Below, piece by piece: positions 2,259 to 50,842 of a stretch of 54,967 nucleotides of DNA (the stretch's first letter is position 1; every line of letters begins with the position of its first letter). The translations under genes and the position numbers were made by a program. The DNA comes from an uncultured Candidatus Saccharibacteria bacterium. GTDB lineage: Bacteria > Patescibacteriota > Doudnabacteria > UBA920. The stretch lies in contig CAZACP010000008.1 in NCBI GenBank assembly GCA_964483665.1, forward strand, positions 1 to 54,967. The letters run 5' to 3'. Below the pieces are notes generated by a model. It saw only the letters and a list, made by a program, of their open reading frames with translations. It was not told where the DNA came from and searched no databases.

Positions 2259-2375
2259 TTAAGGATTCACTGTAATGATTGGACTTTTTGCCGCAGAAGT
2301 ATATCCGTCGTTAAGCAAGTACCTAAACTCATACTGACCAGCAACCGAGGGAGCCCAGGTGGCAAATGTTCCGCA
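2259..2375 (-). pseudogene. C-terminal fragment of a secreted Ig-like-domain protein
   Basis: Reads CGTFATWAPSVAGQYEFRYLLNDGYTSAAKSPIITVNP* with no start codon, then a terminator. Confidence 0.5.
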
Positions 2376-2381
2376 AGTAGC

Positions 2382-2648
2382 GGTTCAGAGTTTTCTCAGC
2401 ATTTTACCGAAAGAATTAAAATCACCCACAGACACAGCAGAGTTAGAAGACCAAATGATAACGCTCATTTAGAAAGGTTTAACAGGACTATCCAGCAGGA
2501 ACTAATCAGGGACTTACCGATTAATACAAGAGTCATTAACCGATTTATTCCCGCTTATCTGGACTACTACAACAATCAGCGATATCATCTAGGTATTAAC
2601 TTAAAAACACCGGCAGAAGTCATTAATTGTTTCCAAGGTATTGTTTAG
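2382..2648 (+). mobile_element. IS481/IS3-type DDE transposase C-terminal remnant
   Basis: Reads GSEFSQHFTERIKITHRHSRVRRPNDNAHLERFNRTIQQE...YLDYYNNQRYHLGINLKTPAEV...*, a typical rve integrase core end; N-terminus missing. Confidence 0.8.
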
Positions 2649-2687
2649 AAAACGTAGTAAACAATAAAAAACCGCATATTTGTACGG

Positions 2688-2724
2688 TTACAGATTACGA
2701 ATTTATTACAGATATACAGATTCG
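2688..2724. repeat. Downstream inverted arm of the GxxExxY element
   Basis: ttacagattacgaatttattacagatatacagattcg; complementary to 3114-3146. Confidence 0.8.
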
Positions 2725-2729
2725 AGCGA

Positions 2730-3113
2730 CTAACGAATGTTTACTATTCTTTTAAACCTTGCTCCATCTTTACCAAAATGTACTAGCACACCCAATTTTA
2801 AATTTAATGCTTTTAAATAGTTTAAGGTCTGATCAATATTGTCACGAGAAAAGTGTGTATCGCGCTTTATTTCTAAAACTAGCTTATCTTCAATTAAAAA
2901 ATCCAAAAAATACTTTCCTATTGAAATAGATTTATAATCTAAATTTACTGCATACTGCTCAACAAATTTTACCCCTCTCTGTTTAAACTCTTCAGCCAAA
3001 GCTTTTTGATAATGCTTCTCTAAAAGCCCTGAACCCAAATTATTATGCACCTCAAAAATCGCACCAATTACTTTTCTTGTTAAGTCTCCATAAATTAAAT
3101 CATTTTCATTCAT
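2730..3113 (-). CDS. GxxExxY protein (PD-(D/E)XK-like family)
   Basis: MNENDLIYGDLTRKVIGAIFEVHNNLGSGLLEKHY...DFLIEDKLVLEIK; start placed at ATG 3113, directly after the repeat arm. Confidence 0.9.
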   Translation of the reverse strand: MNENDLIYGDLTRKVIGAIFEVHNNLGSGLLEKHYQKALAEEFKQRGVKFVEQYAVNLDYKSISIGKYFLDFLIEDKLVLEIKRDTHFSRDNIDQTLNYLKALNLKLGVLVHFGKDGARFKRIVNIR

Positions 3114-3146
3114 AAGTATCCGTATATCCGTAACAAATCTGTAATC
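3114..3146. repeat. Upstream inverted arm of the GxxExxY element
   Basis: aagtatccgtatatccgtaacaaatctgtaatc; complementary to 2688-2724. Confidence 0.8.
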
Positions 3147-3154
3147 CTTAACCA

Positions 3155-4798
3155 TTACTCTCCAGCGACTCTAAACACCTCTTCCACATCTGTTATACCT
3201 TCTAAGGCTTTAAGTAGCCCATCTTGCGCCATAGTCAGCATACCCTGCTCAATGGCGGTTTTTTTAAAATCCGACATAGAGGCTTCTTTGTTTATTAAAT
3301 TTTGTATGGCCTCGGTAACTTCCAAAACTTCGTAAATGCCAATGCGGCCTTTATAGCCAAGGTTATTGCATTTTTCGCAGCCCGGGCTGCGAAAAAATTG
3401 CAAATCTTTTGGCTGGCTGTAATCTTTGGGCATTTGGCTAAAAATCAGCTTAATTCTTTCCATTAGCTGCGGGGAAATTTTTGTCGGAGTTTTACAATCC
3501 TGGCAAATTCTGCGCACTAAACGCTGCGCCATCACGCAGGACAAAGCCGGCGAAACAATAAACGGTTTTACGCCCATATTTATAAGCCGCGGGATTGCGC
3601 CTGCCGCGTCATTGGTATGAAGCGTGGAAAGCACCAAGTGTCCGGTTAATGCTGCCTGCATGGCCACTTCCGCTGTTTCCTGGTCGCGTATTTCTCCCAC
3701 CATTACTATGTCCGGATCTTGCCTTAAAATGGCTCTTAGGCCCTTGGCAAAATTAAAATCTACATTGTGGTCTATGGGCGTTTGCACAATGCCTTCTAAT
3801 TTATATTCCACCGGATCTTCCAAGGTAATAATTTTCACCCCCGGCTCGTTTAACTCGTTTAAAAATGCGTAAAGACTGGTGGTTTTTCCGCTGCCGGTCG
3901 GACCCGTAGTAATAACCATTCCATTGGGACGCTGGAGTATTTTTTCCACAATTTCTTTTTGTTCTTGTCTAAAACCCAAAGAGTCTAATTTTAACTCAGA
4001 GTTGTTGTTGCCAAGCAATCTCATAACCACTTCTTCGCCGTAAGCTGAAGGCAAAACCGAAACGCGCACGTCTATTGGCCCGCCTAAATAAGTAAAAGTA
4101 ATACGGCCGTCCTGCGCCTGGTTTTCTACATTTAGTTTTAATTTGGCTAAAATTTTTATGCGCGTAATTATTTGCCTTTGCAAACTTTTGTTTATATGCA
4201 GCATATCCTGCAAAACTCCGTCTATGCGGTAGCGCAGTTTTAGAAAATGCTCTTCCGGTTCTAAATGTATGTCCGAGGCTCTAAGCAAAACAGCTCCGCC
4301 AAAAAAGATTTCTAAAAATTGGCTGGCAGTGGTTGTAAGCTGCAAATTTTCTTCTGCTAAAGCCTTTAACTGCTTGGTAAAATCTTGCTCTTTTTTTACG
4401 TCTATAGCTTCGTCGTGGGTAGCTTTAGGTCTTAAAACTTTGCTATAAAATTTTAAAGTTTTTTCCAAACTCCTTTTAGAAATTATATACAAAGTAACCT
4501 TGTTGTCTTGCGACAACTCGCGAATTTTTTCTAAAAGCAACGGGTGCTTAGGGTTAACCGTGCCGATTCTTAAATCTTTAAGCTCTTTATAAAAAGGCAC
4601 AGCCAGCATTTCTTTAGCTTCTTCTTCCAAAAAAATTCCCAAAACATTTAAATCCACGGGAAAATTATGCAAATCTACGTAAGGCAAACCCAAAGCCGCG
4701 GCCGCGCTTTGGGCCTGCTGCTCTTCCATTTTGCGGTTAACTTCGTCCATGCTTCGAACCAAATCGGCCGGGGTTTGAGCGAGAAAATTTTTACTCAT
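3155..4798 (-). CDS. GspE/PilB-family type II secretion/type IV pilus ATPase
   Basis: ASDIHLEP, GPTGSGKTT Walker A, LRQDPDIVMVGEIRD, TGHLVLSTLH, Zn-binding CxxC pairs. Confidence 0.95.
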   Translation of the reverse strand: MSKNFLAQTPADLVRSMDEVNRKMEEQQAQSAAAALGLPYVDLHNFPVDLNVLGIFLEEEAKEMLAVPFYKELKDLRIGTVNPKHPLLLEKIRELSQDNKVTLYIISKRSLEKTLKFYSKVLRPKATHDEAIDVKKEQDFTKQLKALAEENLQLTTTASQFLEIFFGGAVLLRASDIHLEPEEHFLKLRYRIDGVLQDMLHINKSLQRQIITRIKILAKLKLNVENQAQDGRITFTYLGGPIDVRVSVLPSAYGEEVVMRLLGNNNSELKLDSLGFRQEQKEIVEKILQRPNGMVITTGPTGSGKTTSLYAFLNELNEPGVKIITLEDPVEYKLEGIVQTPIDHNVDFNFAKGLRAILRQDPDIVMVGEIRDQETAEVAMQAALTGHLVLSTLHTNDAAGAIPRLINMGVKPFIVSPALSCVMAQRLVRRICQDCKTPTKISPQLMERIKLIFSQMPKDYSQPKDLQFFRSPGCEKCNNLGYKGRIGIYEVLEVTEAIQNLINKEASMSDFKKTAIEQGMLTMAQDGLLKALEGITDVEEVFRVAGE

Positions 4799-10986: not shown

Positions 10987-10993
10987 CTTTACC

Positions 10994-11068
10994 AAATACT
11001 AATCTGTACAAATATACTAATAGGGTACAAAAAAATTAGTATATTAGTATTAATTCGTATTTAGTAAA
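10994..11068. repeat. 75-bp TACTAAT/ATTAGTA quasi-palindromic element, copy 1
   Basis: Last 34 nt are 32/34 identical to 35062-35095; same length as copy 2. Confidence 0.8.
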
Positions 11069-11070
11069 AC

Positions 11071-11622
11071 GTGCCAAAACTCTTTCCTTCGCAGCTTGAA
11101 ACTGAAAAAATTTATCTGGTTATTCGGGAACACTGGTTTCGCCTGCTTTTAAAGCTTGTTGTGTGGGCATTTTTAGCGGCGGTATTAGCCAGCTTTCAAT
11201 ACTATGGTCCGCAAATAATCCCCTCGCTCTTTGAAGGCCGCGCGGGAGCTATTACCCATCTGTTTGAACAGGTTTACTTTTTAATTATTTTGCTAGGACT
11301 ATTTTTAATAATTGTTTTTTATTATTTAAACACCCACATAATAACCGACATTCGCGTGGTGGATATTGACCAAGTTGGTCTTTTCTCCCATGTTGTTTCA
11401 GAACTTCACATAGATAAAATAGAAGACGTTACCAGTGAAACCGAAGGAATTTTTGGCACAATTTTTAACTACGGCCAAGTTTTTGTACAAACCGCGGCCA
11501 CCATTGAACGTTTTGAATTCGACAATGTCCCTAATCCGGCCGGTATAGAAAAACTTATTTTAGACCTATACGAACAAAATTCAAATTTTGCCAAAGAAGG
11601 GAAAGAGGCGGATAATAATTGA
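11071..11622 (+). CDS. Membrane protein with bacterial PH (bPH_2-like) domain
   Basis: Two TM helices, then HIITDIRVVDIDQVGLF...IEDVTSE..GIFGTIFNYGQVFVQTA. Confidence 0.75.
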   Translation: MPKLFPSQLETEKIYLVIREHWFRLLLKLVVWAFLAAVLASFQYYGPQIIPSLFEGRAGAITHLFEQVYFLIILLGLFLIIVFYYLNTHIITDIRVVDIDQVGLFSHVVSELHIDKIEDVTSETEGIFGTIFNYGQVFVQTAATIERFEFDNVPNPAGIEKLILDLYEQNSNFAKEGKEADNN

Positions 11623-20551: not shown

Positions 20552-20640
20552 AAAATCACAGAGCGCCACGGAAGCAATAACTGATATCACGGAACATACT
20601 AATTGCGATCCGTGTAATCTGTAAATATCCGTGCTTTTCT
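20552..20640. repeat. CACGGA/TCCGTG arm hairpin between dnaN and recF
   Basis: cacagag..cacggaa..cacggaa versus atccgtg..atctgta..atccgtg. Confidence 0.7.
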
Positions 20641-20646
20641 GTATTA

Positions 20647-23574: not shown

Positions 23575-23690
23575 ATCGCTGACAACACAGACTATTACCG
23601 AAGTACACGGACTTGTTTTATAAAGACTTACGATAATTTTAAAGTAAGCTTATATTATTATCGATCCGTGCCACTCGGTGAATATCAGTG
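23575..23690 (+). repeat. Long imperfect hairpin (CACGGA/TCCGTG family) in the rpmH leader
   Basis: cgctga/tcagtg, accgaagt/actcggt, cacgga/tccgtg and cttac/gtaag nested pairings. Confidence 0.55.
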
Positions 23691-30722: not shown

Positions 30723-31886
30723 ATGAATCAAATCGAAGAAATTTTAACCAGAGGTGTGGAGGAAGTTATAGACAAGGCGCATTTAGAAAGCCTTTTAAAG
30801 AGCAAAAAAAAGTTGAGAGTTAAATTGGGCATAGACCCAACCTCCCCCAATATTCATATTGGCCGAGCAGTAGTTTTGTGGAAGCTAAGGGCTTTTCAGG
30901 AATTGGGACATAAGGTGGTTTTTATAGTCGGCGATTTTACCGGCCTTATTGGCGACACTTCGGACAAAGAGTCAGAACGTCCCATGCTTTCTGAAAAAGA
31001 AATAAAGGCCAACCTAAAAAGCTATTTTGCCCAGGCGGGAAAAATTATAGACCCCAAAAAAGCTGAAATGCATTACAACTCCAAGTGGCTAAAAAAACTG
31101 GGGTTTGCAGAAATTGGCAAGTTGGCTAATTTGTTTGGCTTGCACGAAATGTCTTCGCGGGAAAATATTGCCTTGCGGCTTAAAGCCGGCAAACCTGTTT
31201 CGCTCAGGGAGCTTCTTTACCCTCTTATGCAGGGCTACGATTCAGTTGCTGTGAAGGCCGATGTGGAGCTTGGCGGTACAGACCAGAGGTTTAATTTGCT
31301 GGCCGGACGCACAATACAAAAAGCCTACGGGCAAGAGCCGCAGGATATTTTAACCACACAAATTATGGAAGGTACAGACGGAAGGAAAATGTCTTCTTCT
31401 TGGGGCAACACGGTAAACATTACCGAAGAGCCTAACAATATGTTTGGAAAAATAATGTCTATTCCCGATGGTTTAATAAAAAAGTATTTTGTTTTGGCTA
31501 CAAGAGTGGAAATTAGGGAAATAGATGAAATAATGAAATTGCCGAATCCTAGGGATCAGAAATTAAAACTAGCCGAAGAAATTACCAAGCTTTACCATGG
31601 CGAAAAAAAAGCTTTGGTTGCTAAAGAAGCCTTTATTAATCAATTCAGTAAAGGTGAGTTGCCTGAAGAAATTGAAACAAAAAAGTTTAAAAGCGGTAGT
31701 TACAAATTATCAGAGTTGATTGTTTTAACCGGGCAGGCAGCAAGCAAGTCAGAGGCCAGAAGGCTTATTGAGCAAAAGGGTGTTAAGGTGGATCAGCAAA
31801 CCAGCGGCGATATGGAGCTTATGCTAGACGGACAAAAAGAATATTTGCTCCAGGTTGGCAAAAGAAAATTTGTGAAAATAAAATAA
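30723..31886 (+). CDS. tyrS: Tyrosyl-tRNA synthetase
   Basis: GIDPTSPNIHIG (HIGH), YPLMQGYDS, GGTDQRFN, KMSSS, S4 domain. Confidence 0.97.
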   Translation: MNQIEEILTRGVEEVIDKAHLESLLKSKKKLRVKLGIDPTSPNIHIGRAVVLWKLRAFQELGHKVVFIVGDFTGLIGDTSDKESERPMLSEKEIKANLKSYFAQAGKIIDPKKAEMHYNSKWLKKLGFAEIGKLANLFGLHEMSSRENIALRLKAGKPVSLRELLYPLMQGYDSVAVKADVELGGTDQRFNLLAGRTIQKAYGQEPQDILTTQIMEGTDGRKMSSSWGNTVNITEEPNNMFGKIMSIPDGLIKKYFVLATRVEIREIDEIMKLPNPRDQKLKLAEEITKLYHGEKKALVAKEAFINQFSKGELPEEIETKKFKSGSYKLSELIVLTGQAASKSEARRLIEQKGVKVDQQTSGDMELMLDGQKEYLLQVGKRKFVKIK

Positions 31887-31889
31887 GTC

Positions 31890-32018
31890 CGTCATCCCGG
31901 AATTTTTTCGTCTCAGTATAAAGTTAGTCGAAAAAATATCCGGGATCCAGAATAGAGCAATAAAATAGATTCCGGATATTCTGCCCATATAAATAGTTGT
32001 ACAGAATTCCGGAATGAC
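31890..32018. repeat. GTCATYCCGG...CCGGAATGAC REP/MITE-like composite palindrome
   Basis: cgtcatcccgga...atccgggatcca...tagattccgga...ttccggaatgac. Confidence 0.75.
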
Positions 32019-32107
32019 AAAGCTTGTATATATAAACTTAAAACCCCCTCAAAGCGAGGGGGTTTTAAAATCTGTGCAATCTGTATTTATCCGTGTATCT
32101 GTGAACG

Positions 32108-33909: not shown

Positions 33910-33940
33910 ATTAAATAAAATTTTGAAATTAAATAAAATT
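33910..33940. repeat. Downstream inverted arms of the four-helix-bundle element
   Basis: attaaataaaatt (33910-22) and aaattaaataaaatt (33926-40). Confidence 0.75.
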
Positions 33941-33949
33941 AAGTAAAAT

Positions 33950-34315
33950 TTATTTATTCCTAAGATTTTTCGTGGCTGAATATTTTGACGCTGTCATAAT
34001 GGCTGTTATTTCCGAGGCCTCTTTTAACAAATCTTGGATTTCCGCTTCATTCATTAATTTTGATTCAATTATTAATTCAAGCCAAAATTGAGTTTCATCT
34101 GCTTCTTCTGCAACCACCCCAAGTTTGTTAATGAAATCTTTTGCGGACTTAGCTCAACAAACAGCGCGGTAGTTGGCAGCGACAGATGTGCCTGATCTTA
34201 AAATTTGTTTAGCAATTACAATTCCTACCGTTCCTAATTTTTCTAAATGTTGTGAAAGTTTAATAATTCTTATGGCAAATTGTTTAGTTCTTTTTTGAAG
34301 GTCGATTTTGTCCAT
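33950..34315 (-). pseudogene. Four-helix-bundle (23S rRNA IVP-like) protein with an in-frame TGA at codon 54
   Basis: MDKIDLQKRTKQFAIRII...QILRSGTSVAANYRAVC*AKSAKDFINKLGVVAEEADETQFWLEL...NK*; TGA at 34154-34156. Confidence 0.88.
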
Positions 34316-34316
34316 A

Positions 34317-34349
34317 AATTTTATTTAATTTGCTAATTTTATTTAATTT
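34317..34349. repeat. Upstream inverted arms of the four-helix-bundle element
   Basis: aattttatttaattt twice (34317-31, 34335-49), reverse complement of the downstream arm. Confidence 0.75.
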
Positions 34350-35011
34350 TTAAATGACACAAGCACGGTCATTTCCCCTTTAATAGCCGCGCGGTCTTTA
34401 AGTTGGTGTATTACGTCGTCCGGAGTGCCTCGAATGAATTCTTCATGCATTTTGGTAAGCTCGCGCGCTATTACAACTTGGGAATTTGGAAAGGCGTTGG
34501 AAATATAGGAAAGAGTTTTAAGTATTCGTTCAGGACTTTCGTAAAAAATGGCAGTAGCTTCTGCGTCCGCGGCAGACTGCAAAGCCGAAACCGCCTTTGC
34601 CGCGGTTTTTTGCAAAAAACCTAAAAACATAAATTTGTCCGTAGGAAGACCGGAGGCGGACAGCGCCACAATGGCCGCACTTGCTCCGGGGATGGGAACT
34701 ACGGCTACGTTTTGCGCTACGCATTCACGAACTAGCCTAAAGCCTGGGTCACTAATTCCGGGAGTTCCTGCGTCGGTTATTAAACAACCGTCTTGTTTTT
34801 GTAAGCGCCGGGTTAATTCTTTTACCACCTGCTGTTCGTTAAATTCCGCAAACTGTACGACCTCTTTTGGCCAGGCGTCTATATGCTGAAGCAGTCTGTT
34901 GCTATAACCTGGGTTTTCGGCAATTACAAAATTGCATGACTTAAGGCTTTTTATAGCTCTTAAAGTAATGTCTTCTAAGTTTCCTATTGGAGTTGCGACA
35001 ACGTACAACAT
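34343..35011 (-). CDS. rsmI: 16S rRNA C1402 2'-O-methyltransferase RsmI
   Basis: LYVVATPIGNLEDIT, TDAGTPGISDPG, YESPER, ARELTKMHEE. Confidence 0.96.
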   Translation of the reverse strand: MLYVVATPIGNLEDITLRAIKSLKSCNFVIAENPGYSNRLLQHIDAWPKEVVQFAEFNEQQVVKELTRRLQKQDGCLITDAGTPGISDPGFRLVRECVAQNVAVVPIPGASAAIVALSASGLPTDKFMFLGFLQKTAAKAVSALQSAADAEATAIFYESPERILKTLSYISNAFPNSQVVIARELTKMHEEFIRGTPDDVIHQLKDRAAIKGEMTVLVSFKN

Positions 35012-35020
35012 ATATTTATT

Positions 35021-35095
35021 AAATACTAATAATTACTAATATACCAATCCTTTTGTTTGATATTAGTATATTAGTATAGATTCGTATTTAGTAAA
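35021..35095. repeat. 75-bp TACTAAT/ATTAGTA element, copy 2
   Basis: Homologous to 10994-11068. Confidence 0.8.
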
Positions 35096-35096
35096 T

Positions 35097-35369
35097 CTAT
35101 TCATCTGTAGATTCTAAACCAAACATTTCTTCTATGAGCTGATATTTATTATGCAGCATTTCCCGGTATTCTCCTAATTCCCATTTAGCGTCGCCACTTG
35201 CCTGCTCATATTCTTCTTGGGTGTCTTTAAGTTCTTTGTCTATGTCCTCCAAAATTTCGTAAGCCTGGTCTTCGGTTTGCGGAGCCTGGTCCATCCACTC
35301 GTCAAAATCCATAGTTAAAAGTTTCTGATATTTTTCTTCGTATATTTCTTTTAATTTTGCCAAATCCAT
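35097..35369 (-). CDS. Acidic helical hypothetical protein
   Basis: 90-aa ORF, host-like codon usage, collinear with rsmI. Confidence 0.75.
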   Translation of the reverse strand: MDLAKLKEIYEEKYQKLLTMDFDEWMDQAPQTEDQAYEILEDIDKELKDTQEEYEQASGDAKWELGEYREMLHNKYQLIEEMFGLESTDE

Positions 35370-49541: not shown

Positions 49542-50753
49542 ATGTCAGAAGAAACAACAGTAACAGCTCCCTCCCCGCTTGCCCCGGTGACTTACCCGGA
49601 AGGAGCAAAGTCCGCGCAAACTATGCAGGACTTAATTAGCAGCGGGATTGAAATTAAAGTTTTAAAAGCCGGCGACATGGTGGAAGGTACTCTTATTTCG
49701 GCCGGTAAAAACGAAGTCTACGTGGACTTAGAAGGTTATGGTATTGGCGTGGTTAGAGGCCGCGAACTTTATGATGACCAGGCTTCTATAGCCAGTCTTG
49801 TGCCCGGCGACAAGCTTTTAGTAAGCGTGGTTGAAACTGAAAATAAAGAAGGCGTGGTAGAATTGTCTTTGCGCCAGGCAGGCCAGAGCAAAGTTTGGCA
49901 GACCTTGAAAGAAAAAATGGAAAACAAAGAAATCATGCGGGTAAAAATTCTTGAAGCCAACAAAGGCGGCCTTATGATAGAGCTTAACAATGTTATGGGT
50001 TTCTTGCCGGTTTCTCAGCTTTCTATAGAACATTACCCGCGCGTGGAAGACGGCGACAAGAGCAAAATTCTTGGAATTTTGCGCTCCTATGTCGGACAAA
50101 TGTTTGACGTGCAGGTTATAACCGCGGATCCGGAAGAAGAAAAGTTAATTGTGAGCGAAAAAGCGGTTATGGAAAAAGAAATGGAAGGCCGTTTATCCAA
50201 ATTAAAAATCGGTGACATTGTTGAAGGCACGGTTACCGGCGTAGTAGACTTTGGCGCATTCGTAAAATTTGGCGAACTGGAAGGCTTGGTACACATTAGC
50301 GAACTTGCCTGGCAGCGCATAGAAAACCCGAAAGACATTATAAAAGTGGGCGACAGCGTCCGCTGCAAGGTTATTTCTATAGACAAGGGCCGCGTAAGTT
50401 TGTCTATAAAGCAGTTGGCTCAAGATCCCTGGCTGGAAGCGGTTAAAAAGTACCAAATCGGCCAAGTAGTAAAAGGCAAAGTTTCTAAAATTATGCCGTT
50501 TGGCGTATTTGTAGAATTAGACAAGGACATTCAGGGACTTGCGCATATAATGGAATTGTCCCACGAAGCTGTTAAATCCGCTGACGGAATTTTAAAGCCG
50601 GGCGAAGAAAAAGAATTTAAAATAATTTCCATTGAACCGGGCGAACACCGCTTGGGGCTTTCCTTAAAAGCTATGACCGAAGCTCCTAAGAAATCTGACG
50701 ATGTTAAGTCTGAAGAGAAGGTAGAAGAAAAAAGCGAAGTTAAGGCTGAATAA
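49542..50753 (+). CDS. rpsA: 30S ribosomal protein S1 (four S1 domains)
   Basis: NKGGL, GFLPVSQLS, DFGAFV...GLVHISEL, MPFGVFV...GLAHIMEL. Confidence 0.93.
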   Translation: MSEETTVTAPSPLAPVTYPEGAKSAQTMQDLISSGIEIKVLKAGDMVEGTLISAGKNEVYVDLEGYGIGVVRGRELYDDQASIASLVPGDKLLVSVVETENKEGVVELSLRQAGQSKVWQTLKEKMENKEIMRVKILEANKGGLMIELNNVMGFLPVSQLSIEHYPRVEDGDKSKILGILRSYVGQMFDVQVITADPEEEKLIVSEKAVMEKEMEGRLSKLKIGDIVEGTVTGVVDFGAFVKFGELEGLVHISELAWQRIENPKDIIKVGDSVRCKVISIDKGRVSLSIKQLAQDPWLEAVKKYQIGQVVKGKVSKIMPFGVFVELDKDIQGLAHIMELSHEAVKSADGILKPGEEKEFKIISIEPGEHRLGLSLKAMTEAPKKSDDVKSEEKVEEKSEVKAE

Positions 50754-50762
50754 AAAATAAAT

Positions 50763-50800
50763 AAAAAACACGGATATCAATTTAGATAGCCGTGTTTTTT
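50763..50800. terminator. Bidirectional terminator after rpsA
   Basis: aaaaaacacgg...ccgtgtttttt. Confidence 0.8.
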
Positions 50801-50842
50801 ATTTCTGTGTTTATCAGTTTTTATTCTGTGGAGTTCTGTGTC

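Follow-up and report, generated by a model that had tools for sequence, protein, structure and literature searches.

Contig CAZACP010000008.1 (positions 1-54,967, forward strand; assembly GCA_964483665.1), from an uncultured Candidatus Saccharibacteria bacterium placed by GTDB in Patescibacteriota, Doudnabacteria, UBA920, is the stretch of DNA analysed here and is referred to as the window. On its minus strand, 2686-3153 is one 468-bp copy of a compact "gene-in-a-palindrome" cassette of the insertion type, in which a gene of the GxxExxY/PDDEXK_3 family stands between two inverted arms behind a pilB/gspE gene. Insertions of this kind constitute a widespread class that has apparently not been described. 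The cassette is best read as an insertion-type palindromic element whose arms would be terminal repeats, or arrays of binding sites, at the level of DNA; the probability of this reading is put at about 0.45. The parts present at the pilB site are the following.

3118-3153, minus strand: upstream (5') arm, 36 nt, with units TACAGAT, TACGGAT and TACGGAT
2730-3113, minus strand: GxxExxY/PDDEXK_3 gene, 127 aa, with ATG at 3113 and TAG stop at 2730-2732
2686-2721, minus strand: downstream (3') arm, the reverse complement of the 5' arm, with units ATCTGTA, ATCTGTA, ATTCGTA and ATCTGTA
2670-2689, minus strand: intrinsic terminator, stem and T-run, overlapping the outer end of the 3' arm
3155-4798, minus strand: host gene for a GspE/PilB-type secretion or pilus ATPase (pilB/gspE), with the cassette in its 3' untranslated spacer

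The inverted arms around the gene, first noticed in an initial annotation made from the letters of the DNA alone, are real. The pairing of 29 nt described there lies within the arms and was recounted by hand with the same result (23 Watson-Crick pairs, 4 G-U pairs, and 2 mismatches, A-C and A-A); their extent had been set too short, since a repeat search gives two arms of 36 nt, 396 nt apart and 81% Watson-Crick paired (29 Watson-Crick, 5 G-U, 1 A-C and 1 other). The arms adjoin the start and stop codons of the gene, as had been stated: the 5' arm begins 1 nt past the pilB stop codon (TAA) and ends 4 nt before ATG 3113, and the 3' arm begins 8 nt past the TAG stop. Translation from an in-frame ATG at 3155 would run through the arm, and this ATG is unlikely to be the true start of the GxxExxY gene. 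Chance pairing of the arms was ruled out by shuffles of both alignment score and fold. The strand-symmetric alignment score is 37, where shuffled sequences average 14.5 and reach 20 at most, and the sense RNA of 2660-3170 folds with a continuous closing helix of about 38 bp (minimum free energy, MFE, -116.9 kcal/mol; z -3.5), a value that 0 of 100 shuffles equalled. The terminator at 2670-2689 closes the pilB-GxxExxY transcript, and its pattern CCGC-N8-GCGG-T6 is kept in pilB orthologues with and without the cassette.

Arms of this type are a general feature of GxxExxY loci, as the initial annotation had supposed. The loci sampled comprise 78 from species-representative genomes, 80 from metagenomes and 8 from plasmids or chromids of cultured bacteria outside the candidate phyla radiation (CPR); the set of close orthologues comprises 10 loci, 9 of them distinct, and the metagenome relatives are at most 57% identical. 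Significant arms are found in about 70% of 71-124 loci: they beat every shuffle in 52 of the 71 usable loci, remain significant under a stricter threshold in 51 of the 71 (median 36 nt), and score at least 30 in 80 of the 124 distinct loci of an enlarged set. In a listing of the flanks, nearly every GxxExxY gene is preceded by runs of TACGAAT, TACTAAT, TACAAAT, TGCGAAT, CACGAAT or TACGGAT and followed by their reverse complement. Outside the CPR, clear inverted arms occur in Bacteroides (with CACAGAGGA units), Bernardetia and Treponema. A complete hairpin lies downstream of the gene in Gemmatirosa, direct repeats are present at the loci of Fusobacteria, Prevotella and Persicobacter, and Sphingomonas has an upstream array only.

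The arms of GxxExxY loci are arrays of a polar heptamer, YRC-N-RAW (here TAC-R-GAT), with 3-5 units per repeat. When the arms of a locus are aligned with each other, the mismatch rates at the seven positions are.06,.09,.02,.37,.03,.00 and.02, and the rate between units is.21; conservation is thus confined to the core triplets, which both arms keep, with little constraint on the centre base and about half the freedom in the spacers. All arrays are directed mainly inward, with units numbering 334 of sense type to 50 of antisense type upstream and 55 to 322 downstream. GxxExxY arms contain 2.6 units per 60 nt vs 0.76 both in control flanks and in the arms of the four-helix-bundle loci considered below, and the heptamer is specific to GxxExxY genes. 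In the pilB-linked clade, GGATTAC and GATATAC are invariant and the adjoining spacers vary. Because the core triplets are conserved, the centre is free, the spacers are half-free, and the units are polar and family-specific, the pattern is that of candidate sequence-specific recognition sites in repeated copies and not of a generic double-stranded stem.

The encoded protein matches TIGR04256 (GxxExxY) over model positions 1-116 of 116 (E 5e-34; 117 bits vs a cut-off of 35) and PF13366 (PDDEXK_3; E 1e-33; 116 bits vs a cut-off of 22). Its nuclease motif, E32...D71...E81-x-K83, is intact, and E32, D71, E81 and K83 are invariant in 53 homologues. An AlphaFold (AF2) model (pLDDT 94, pTM 0.87) has the order alpha-alpha-beta-beta-beta-alpha-beta-beta, and its top Foldseek matches are nuclease cores, those of an alkaline exonuclease, lambda exonuclease, Cas4 SSO0001, MGME1 and AdnAB, with tRNA-splicing endonucleases and Hjc lower in the ranking. 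Given the invariant residues, the confident model and the RecB-like structural neighbours, the protein is predicted to be a minimal RecB/Cas4-like PD-(D/E)XK nuclease and is probably enzymatically active. A search for a solved structure of a sequence relative returned weak Pcc1 matches only. A phage origin was considered and set aside after tblastn gave no match in 50,697 phage records.

The cassette behaves as a one-gene insertion unit, which agrees with the initial annotation: it is present or absent among pilB orthologues, and when it relocates its arms go with it. The window and loci L080, L100, L081 and L093 have the cassette at the pilB site, which is clean, with the conserved terminator only, in L085, L086, L089 and others. 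Empty sites that keep only the arms had been named as something to look for. L079, the closest relative (PilB 87% identical), has no open reading frame (ORF) at the pilB site and carries the solo array ATAAGATATAAGATTTAGGAT, and in L090 a solo upstream-type arm is left; at the clean sites no arm remains. The pilB site of L093 (4150-4665) has a left arm, a right arm (these two forming a closed hairpin), the GxxExxY ORF and a second right arm, an order that suggests rearrangement between hairpin and cassette forms. A T2SSE gene precedes each of the 12 close orthologues of the cassette, and the pilB-linked lineage has therefore been inherited vertically. Elsewhere, subfamily members 73-79% identical to each other are found in unrelated flanks (L027 vs L029; L019/L021 vs L040; L021 and L070 within one genome). 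L027, L029, L021 and L070 share the termini CTCTACTAAATAC...GTATTTAGTAGA; the context of L040 differs from that of the atp-linked group, and for this locus the right-hand terminus alone was read. Since the same termini recur in unrelated flanks, the arms travel with the gene.

Cassettes of this family appear from their sequences to be promoterless and to lie inside host operons in the orientation of their neighbours. The genes next to GxxExxY genes are co-oriented in a ratio of 60:6 upstream and 64:7 downstream, and the upstream stop codon lies a median of 46 nt from the start of the ORF, just the arm. Typical hosts are housekeeping operons, including atpD-atpC in several CPR lineages, fabD-X-fabG (in Sphingomonas parapaucimobilis), radA-X (in Bacteroides finegoldii) and ade-X. 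No sigma-70-like promoter was found on the minus strand between pilB and the GxxExxY gene. Four wastewater metatranscriptomes contain contigs that run from inside pilB through both arms (2540-3197, 2343-3197); no joint skipping the element was seen in these assembled contigs, which carry no read ends. The RNA contigs fit co-transcription of pilB and the cassette and are silent on cleavage, and carry-over of DNA is possible. In RNA runs X7, X8 and X10, contigs of a co-occurring strain diverge at 3168, the last pilB codons differ synonymously and AAAACAATTAACAATTT follows the stop; this strain may have a variant of the pilB site without this cassette. A gene for RNase III (rnc) was not found among the window ORFs checked.

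A second cassette of the same palindrome type, built around an unrelated gene, occupies the rsmI-yebC spacer of the window.

33910-34347, minus strand: second cassette, 438 bp, with 31-nt arms at 33910-33940 and 34317-34347 that are 90% complementary
34315 to 33950, minus strand: four-helix-bundle (23S_rRNA_IVP) gene with the AEEADETQFWLELI motif, interrupted by an in-frame TGA

The ORF of the second cassette matches TIGR02436 (E 5e-24) and PF05635, "23S rRNA-intervening sequence protein" (E 2e-17). The same layout was seen in 80 four-helix-bundle loci from Bacteroidota, Verrucomicrobiota, Planctomycetota, CPR and other phyla, whose neighbouring genes are co-oriented 56:13 upstream and 61:10 downstream. 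Arms are equally common in the two families, being significant in 53 of 74 four-helix-bundle loci (median 31 nt). The four-helix-bundle arms are also tandemly repetitive, with many unrelated units (AATTGGC, AATGCGG, GTAATGG, TAAGACC), and the GxxExxY heptamer is at background level in them. A gene of the four-helix-bundle family has been reported in the gmk-nadD spacer of Flavobacterium columnare (PMC5524665). The idea that the four-helix-bundle IVS protein is treated as HEPN was dropped, as this was not found in a survey of HEPN proteins (PMC3710099).

This second family is that of the intervening sequences (IVSs) of 23S rRNA, and the analogy with IVSs drawn in the initial annotation is apt: a gene of the IVS protein family sits in the same type of palindrome within the window, and size and stem of the pilB cassette match the Coxiella IVS. 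In Coxiella, the IVS measures 428-444 nt, contains an S23p ORF, has terminal inverted repeats that form a 28-bp stem, and is excised by RNase III (PMC4990558). More generally, the IVSs of Leptospira, Coxiella and Salmonella resemble the cassette in being inserts of about 430-470 nt with terminal inverted repeats and a stem of about 28-36 bp, with an ORF of about 120 aa in the loop, a sporadic distribution and versions without ORF (PMC4990558); the architecture at 33910-34347 holds the IVS ORF family (PF05635/TIGR02436) itself. The differences are in location, protein and arms. The pilB cassette lies in a spacer of a protein operon, whereas IVSs lie in helix 25 or 45 of 23S rRNA; Rfam found only tRNAs and no rRNA in the window, and no rRNA in 16 related loci either. 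The pilB cassette encodes a PD-(D/E)XK nuclease and the IVS a four-helix bundle, and GxxExxY arms are arrays of the family-specific heptamer. Both transposon-remnant and mobile-element hypotheses have been put forward for the origin of IVSs, a question open for more than 30 years (PMC4990558).

In the favoured reading, an insertion-type element with DNA-level terminal repeats, constraint on the arms would act on the DNA sequence and not primarily on RNA pairing. The units would be repeated recognition sites, most simply for the encoded nuclease, and would mark both ends of the element. The GxxExxY gene would be expressed by read-through from pilB. In the pilB transcript the arms would pair into a stem of about 36 bp, loop out the ORF and hide its start region. 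This stem would likely be an RNase III substrate, as in the 23S IVSs and Correia elements; cleavage is expected because a near-perfect helix of 30-40 bp would stand in an mRNA, and because of the properties of the enzyme and the IVS and Correia precedents. The RNA hairpin would thus be a consequence of co-transcription, possibly exploited by the host or by the element, and not the primary target of selection.

Several points weigh against this reading. The spacers between units are still 79% complementary and their irregular spacing is mirrored between the arms; therefore either selection for pairing or frequent copying from arm to arm is needed, and such copying is a possible source of spacer complementarity without G-U bias. 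Inspection by eye revealed no target-site duplication for the window copy or for five copies that have relocated, and the limits of the arms are not sharp. Some copies outside the CPR have direct repeats or a single arm. Inheritance of most copies is vertical, with the site unchanged, and conservation of the protein often exceeds that of the host genes beside it; a domesticated gene, or one useful to the host, is as compatible with this as a selfish gene. The four-helix-bundle genes, unlikely to be enzymes, stand in the same architecture with unrelated units, and therefore the encoded protein need not be the mobility factor. To our knowledge, no transposition chemistry is available to a 127-aa PD-(D/E)XK protein acting alone, and binding, cleavage and mobility of the cassette are inferred.

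Repeats of the same kind are also present without a gene, and an alternative built on this is the best placed of the rivals, being improbable but not strongly so. It compares the cassette with the repetitive extragenic palindromic (REP) sequences, their inverted doublets (REPINs) and the associated tyrosine transposases (RAYTs): a vertically inherited, domesticated nuclease would spread or maintain ORF-less hairpins through its cognate repeats, the gene itself would rarely move, and the host would use the hairpins as intercistronic RNA elements in stability, processing or termination. The gene-less repeats in the window are the following.

10988-11068, strand not assigned: ORF-less hairpin with 34-nt arms of TACTAAT/TACAAAT/TACGAAT units and a 13-nt loop, just upstream of the ORF starting at 11071
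20557-20643, strand not assigned: ORF-less hairpin of CACGGAT/ACAGAT-type units, the same unit type as GxxExxY arms, filling the dnaN-recF spacer
32060-32105, strand not assigned: solo array of four ATCYGTG/ATCTGTA units after a strong terminator hairpin (32038-32068), with no partner arm found
35010-35100, strand not assigned: ORF-less hairpin of TACTAAT/TACAAAT/TACGAAT units, directly upstream of the rsmI start

The hairpins at 10988-11068 and 35010-35100 have nearly identical right arms and unrelated loops. In the hairpin at 20557-20643, only the unit cores pair (CACGGA/TCCGTG, ACAGA/TCTGT); the GTG at 20590 that is listed as the recF start probably lies too far upstream, a better fit being an ATG near 20562. 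A second solo array of ATCYGTG-type units without partner arm lies at 23664-23690. Outside the window, the right-arm terminus of the atp-linked subfamily was scanned in species-representative genomes and gave at least 120 matching stretches. Among the matches listed, there are 31 distinct ORF-less hairpins vs 6 elements with an ORF-sized loop, the remainder being mostly unrelated tandem arrays of Bacteroidota; at least 14 hairpins lie in WARV01, a CPR genome of about 1 Mb, and a 43-nt loop is conserved among 12 of them; a cassette and hairpins with the same termini occur together in CAZFQP01, CAZQFQ01, JAGWQI01 and JARLHZ01. Many tandem arrays (e.g., TAGTAGATAGTATTTAGTAGATAG) were observed in L307, L314, L334 and other loci of JAOQAG01 and in other Bacteroidota loci among L299-L418, and one Bacteroidota metagenome-assembled genome has more than 10 tandem-array sites. 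The arm at 3118-3153 itself has a hairpin twin: a second metagenome contig (DNA runs X1, X3, X6 and X11) carries the 36-nt arm with 3 differences in an unrelated context, as a short ORF-less hairpin (…ATATACGGAT gatacgaa ATCCGTATAT…) at a depth similar to that of the window genome.

As in RAYT/REP systems, a nuclease-type gene lies between inverted copies of its own family-specific repeat, which is also dispersed in intergenic hairpins; genomes with a cassette also contain hairpins that share its termini (about five per cassette for one terminus type, among the matches listed) and fill operon spacers such as dnaN-recF and the one upstream of rsmI. Inheritance of the GxxExxY gene is largely vertical, as in RAYT/REPIN systems, and its protein is strongly conserved. 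RAYTs are Y1 tyrosine transposases of the HUH type, like the TnpA of IS200/IS605, and a REP is a single palindrome of 20-35 nt. The GxxExxY protein, in contrast, is a PD-(D/E)XK nuclease and lacks this defining enzyme, its repeats are heptamer arrays, several GxxExxY paralogues exist per genome, and cassettes relocate with their arms. The loops of the hairpin copies differ between genomes, the match between the unit type of gene and orphan hairpins within a genome was seen for one terminus family only, and four-helix-bundle genes show the same layout without a nuclease.

Two further palindromes in the window were observed apart from these. At 31887-32030, downstream of a gene ending at 31886, two adjacent strong hairpins are built on the TCCGGAAT motif (MFE -42.1, z -5.5) and belong to a different palindrome family. 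At 50746-50817, a 33-nt inverted repeat (82% complementary, 6-nt loop) contains CACGGATATC/GATAGCCGTG and could be either a terminator or a further member of the hairpin family.

The initial annotation had favoured another explanation, namely that selection maintains the arms for the RNA stem they form in the sense transcript, a stem that would loop out the ORF and be cut by RNase III, or would control translation, making the cassette an intervening sequence of an mRNA. The following observations speak for it. The sense strand of 2660-3170 folds far better than the antisense strand (-116.9 vs -70.7, the latter with z -1.8), as do the arms alone (-40.8 vs -26.1), and the mismatches include 5 G-U and 1 A-C. 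Nearly all cassettes lie within host transcripts and in the same orientation, RNA contigs cover pilB and the cassette, and the arms adjoin start and stop codons. Size and stem resemble the RNase III-processed IVS of Coxiella (428-444 nt, 28-bp stem; PMC4990558), a gene for the 23S IVS protein stands in the same type of palindrome within the window, and the inverted terminal repeats of Correia elements in mRNA can be RNase III targets (PMC2649163). Under selection on sense RNA, G-U should far outnumber A-C, which corresponds to G-U on the antisense strand. The mismatches in the arms of GxxExxY loci were counted as follows.

71 GxxExxY loci: G-U 50, A-C 49, other 177
51 loci with significant arms: G-U 41, A-C 44, other 157
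The same 51 loci, isolated mismatches with three pairs on each side: G-U 12, A-C 18, other 61
80 strong-arm loci of the enlarged set: G-U 71, A-C 72, other 281
The pilB-linked clade of the window, 12 sequences: G-U 18, A-C 9, other 31

The shares are near the 1:1:4 expected at random, and two thirds of the arm mismatches are of transversion type. The arm duplex energy is -32.1 for the sense and -32.6 for the antisense strand. The G-U pairs that had been taken as a sign of selection on RNA pairing thus lose this meaning (71 G-U vs 72 A-C, with energies alike on both strands): the strand-biased excess of G-U, whose lack had been named beforehand as a refuting result, is absent over the 80 strong-arm loci. 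It is likewise absent from the 53 four-helix-bundle loci (G-U to A-C 41:49; isolated mismatches 18:15), whose strand energies are equal. The pilB-linked clade leans in the same direction as the window, with 18:9, which is not significant (p = 0.12) and is counted over sequences that are non-independent; several of its G-U pairs go back to a single inherited state, such as the inner TACGGAT/ATCTGTA pair common to four sequences, and one relative has the opposite, A-C intermediate. Since the family counts are balanced and the clade value is non-significant and inflated by shared ancestry, the 5:1 ratio of the window is most plausibly an accident of this locus, or a trend of the clade at most, and not a signature of the family.

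Covariation gives the same answer. An alignment of 11 orthologous arm pairs shows 87% pairing over the full 36-bp structure, 17 of the 36 pairs never vary within the pilB-linked clade, and the covariation score of 0.110, compared with 0.107 for the shuffle control, is reached by 204 of 500 shuffles; support from covariation, which the initial annotation had looked to, is therefore no better than in shuffles. Moreover, mismatches cluster at the heptamer centre and are not spread along the helix, and the unit sequence is conserved and family-specific; a generic double-stranded RNA substrate needs neither conservation nor family specificity of the unit sequence. An RNA stem as the primary object of selection is therefore unlikely.

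At the pilB cassette, Rfam detected no known RNA family on the arms. An RT-17 match on the minus strand at 2737-2829, in the 3' part of the GxxExxY coding sequence, reached 26 bits vs a gathering score of 40; it was absent from 16 other GxxExxY loci searched with Rfam, and because it does not recur there it is probably due to chance. The GGA in the window arms, reminiscent of CsrA-type sites, was discarded as a lead, since most family members have TACGAAT/TACTAAT units without GGA.

It is very improbable that the heptamer arrays are operator- or antitoxin-like sites controlling the nuclease in an addiction or defence module that is not mobile: tandem repeats of a family-specific unit do lie directly upstream of the nuclease gene, with no room for a separate leader, and Sphingomonas has the upstream array only, but the downstream inverted array, the ORF-less hairpins and the solo arrays would be unexplained, no partner gene is present, and units of 7 nt are much shorter than the repeats of type III antitoxins, which are 36 nt in known systems. 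A type III toxin-antitoxin system proper was rejected on the short units and on the inverted copy after the gene, and is kept only within this low-weight alternative. An integron cassette was rejected as well; an attC site lies only downstream of the cassette ORF and needs an integrase, whereas here two arms bracket the ORF.

Among other known elements, Correia elements and MITEs (miniature inverted-repeat transposable elements) likewise are short and intergenic, have terminal inverted repeats and are co-transcribed with their neighbours, and multi-copy ORF-less hairpins are present in the genomes studied; the RNA hairpin of Correia elements can be bound or cut by RNase III (PMC2649163). The full-length GxxExxY cassette differs from them in carrying a conserved gene that is not a known transposase, in the lack of a target-site duplication visible by eye, in arms of tandem heptamers, and in that many copies are old and syntenic. 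The ends of Tn7, Mu and Tc1-like elements of the inverted repeat-direct repeat (IR-DR) type each contain several oriented copies of a short binding motif. GxxExxY arms resemble them in having several short, inward-pointing motifs mirrored at both ends, and differ in that the cassette has no DDE or other strand-transfer enzyme. The only PD-(D/E)XK transposition protein that we know of is TnsA, which needs TnsB.

In the surroundings of the pilB cassette, 2392-2652 on the plus strand is the C-terminal remnant of an IS-type transposase with an rve_3 integrase core (PF13683, E 4e-12), convergent with the GxxExxY gene, and 1-2390 of the window has no ORF of at least 100 aa on either strand.

With IVSs, MITEs and RAYT/REPIN systems already known, the GxxExxY cassette is no new category. 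What is new is the family-wide architecture that crosses phyla, the nuclease-specific heptamer, and the link to the IVS protein family outside rRNA; no description of flanking repeats of GxxExxY/PDDEXK_3 genes was found in the searchable literature naming these families. For annotation, the arms create spurious N-terminal extensions and small ORFs, and ORF-less hairpins stand inside essential operons (e.g., dnaN-recF and atpD-atpC). As a tentative and somewhat doubtful extension, GxxExxY nucleases and their polar YRC-N-RAW arrays may form a self-recognising repeat system, like RAYT/REPIN or a minimal transposon, and 23S IVSs may be the rRNA-resident members of a larger class of cassettes of about 450 bp in the spacers of housekeeping operons across phyla. 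GxxExxY/PDDEXK_3 is a very large family without known function, and two unrelated families of small proteins, one of them the IVS protein family, share one architecture in operon spacers. Cultured carriers exist in Bacteroides, Sphingomonas and Treponema, and a defined DNA or RNA motif together with a defined protein provides a testable handle on the function of GxxExxY proteins and on the origin of IVSs.

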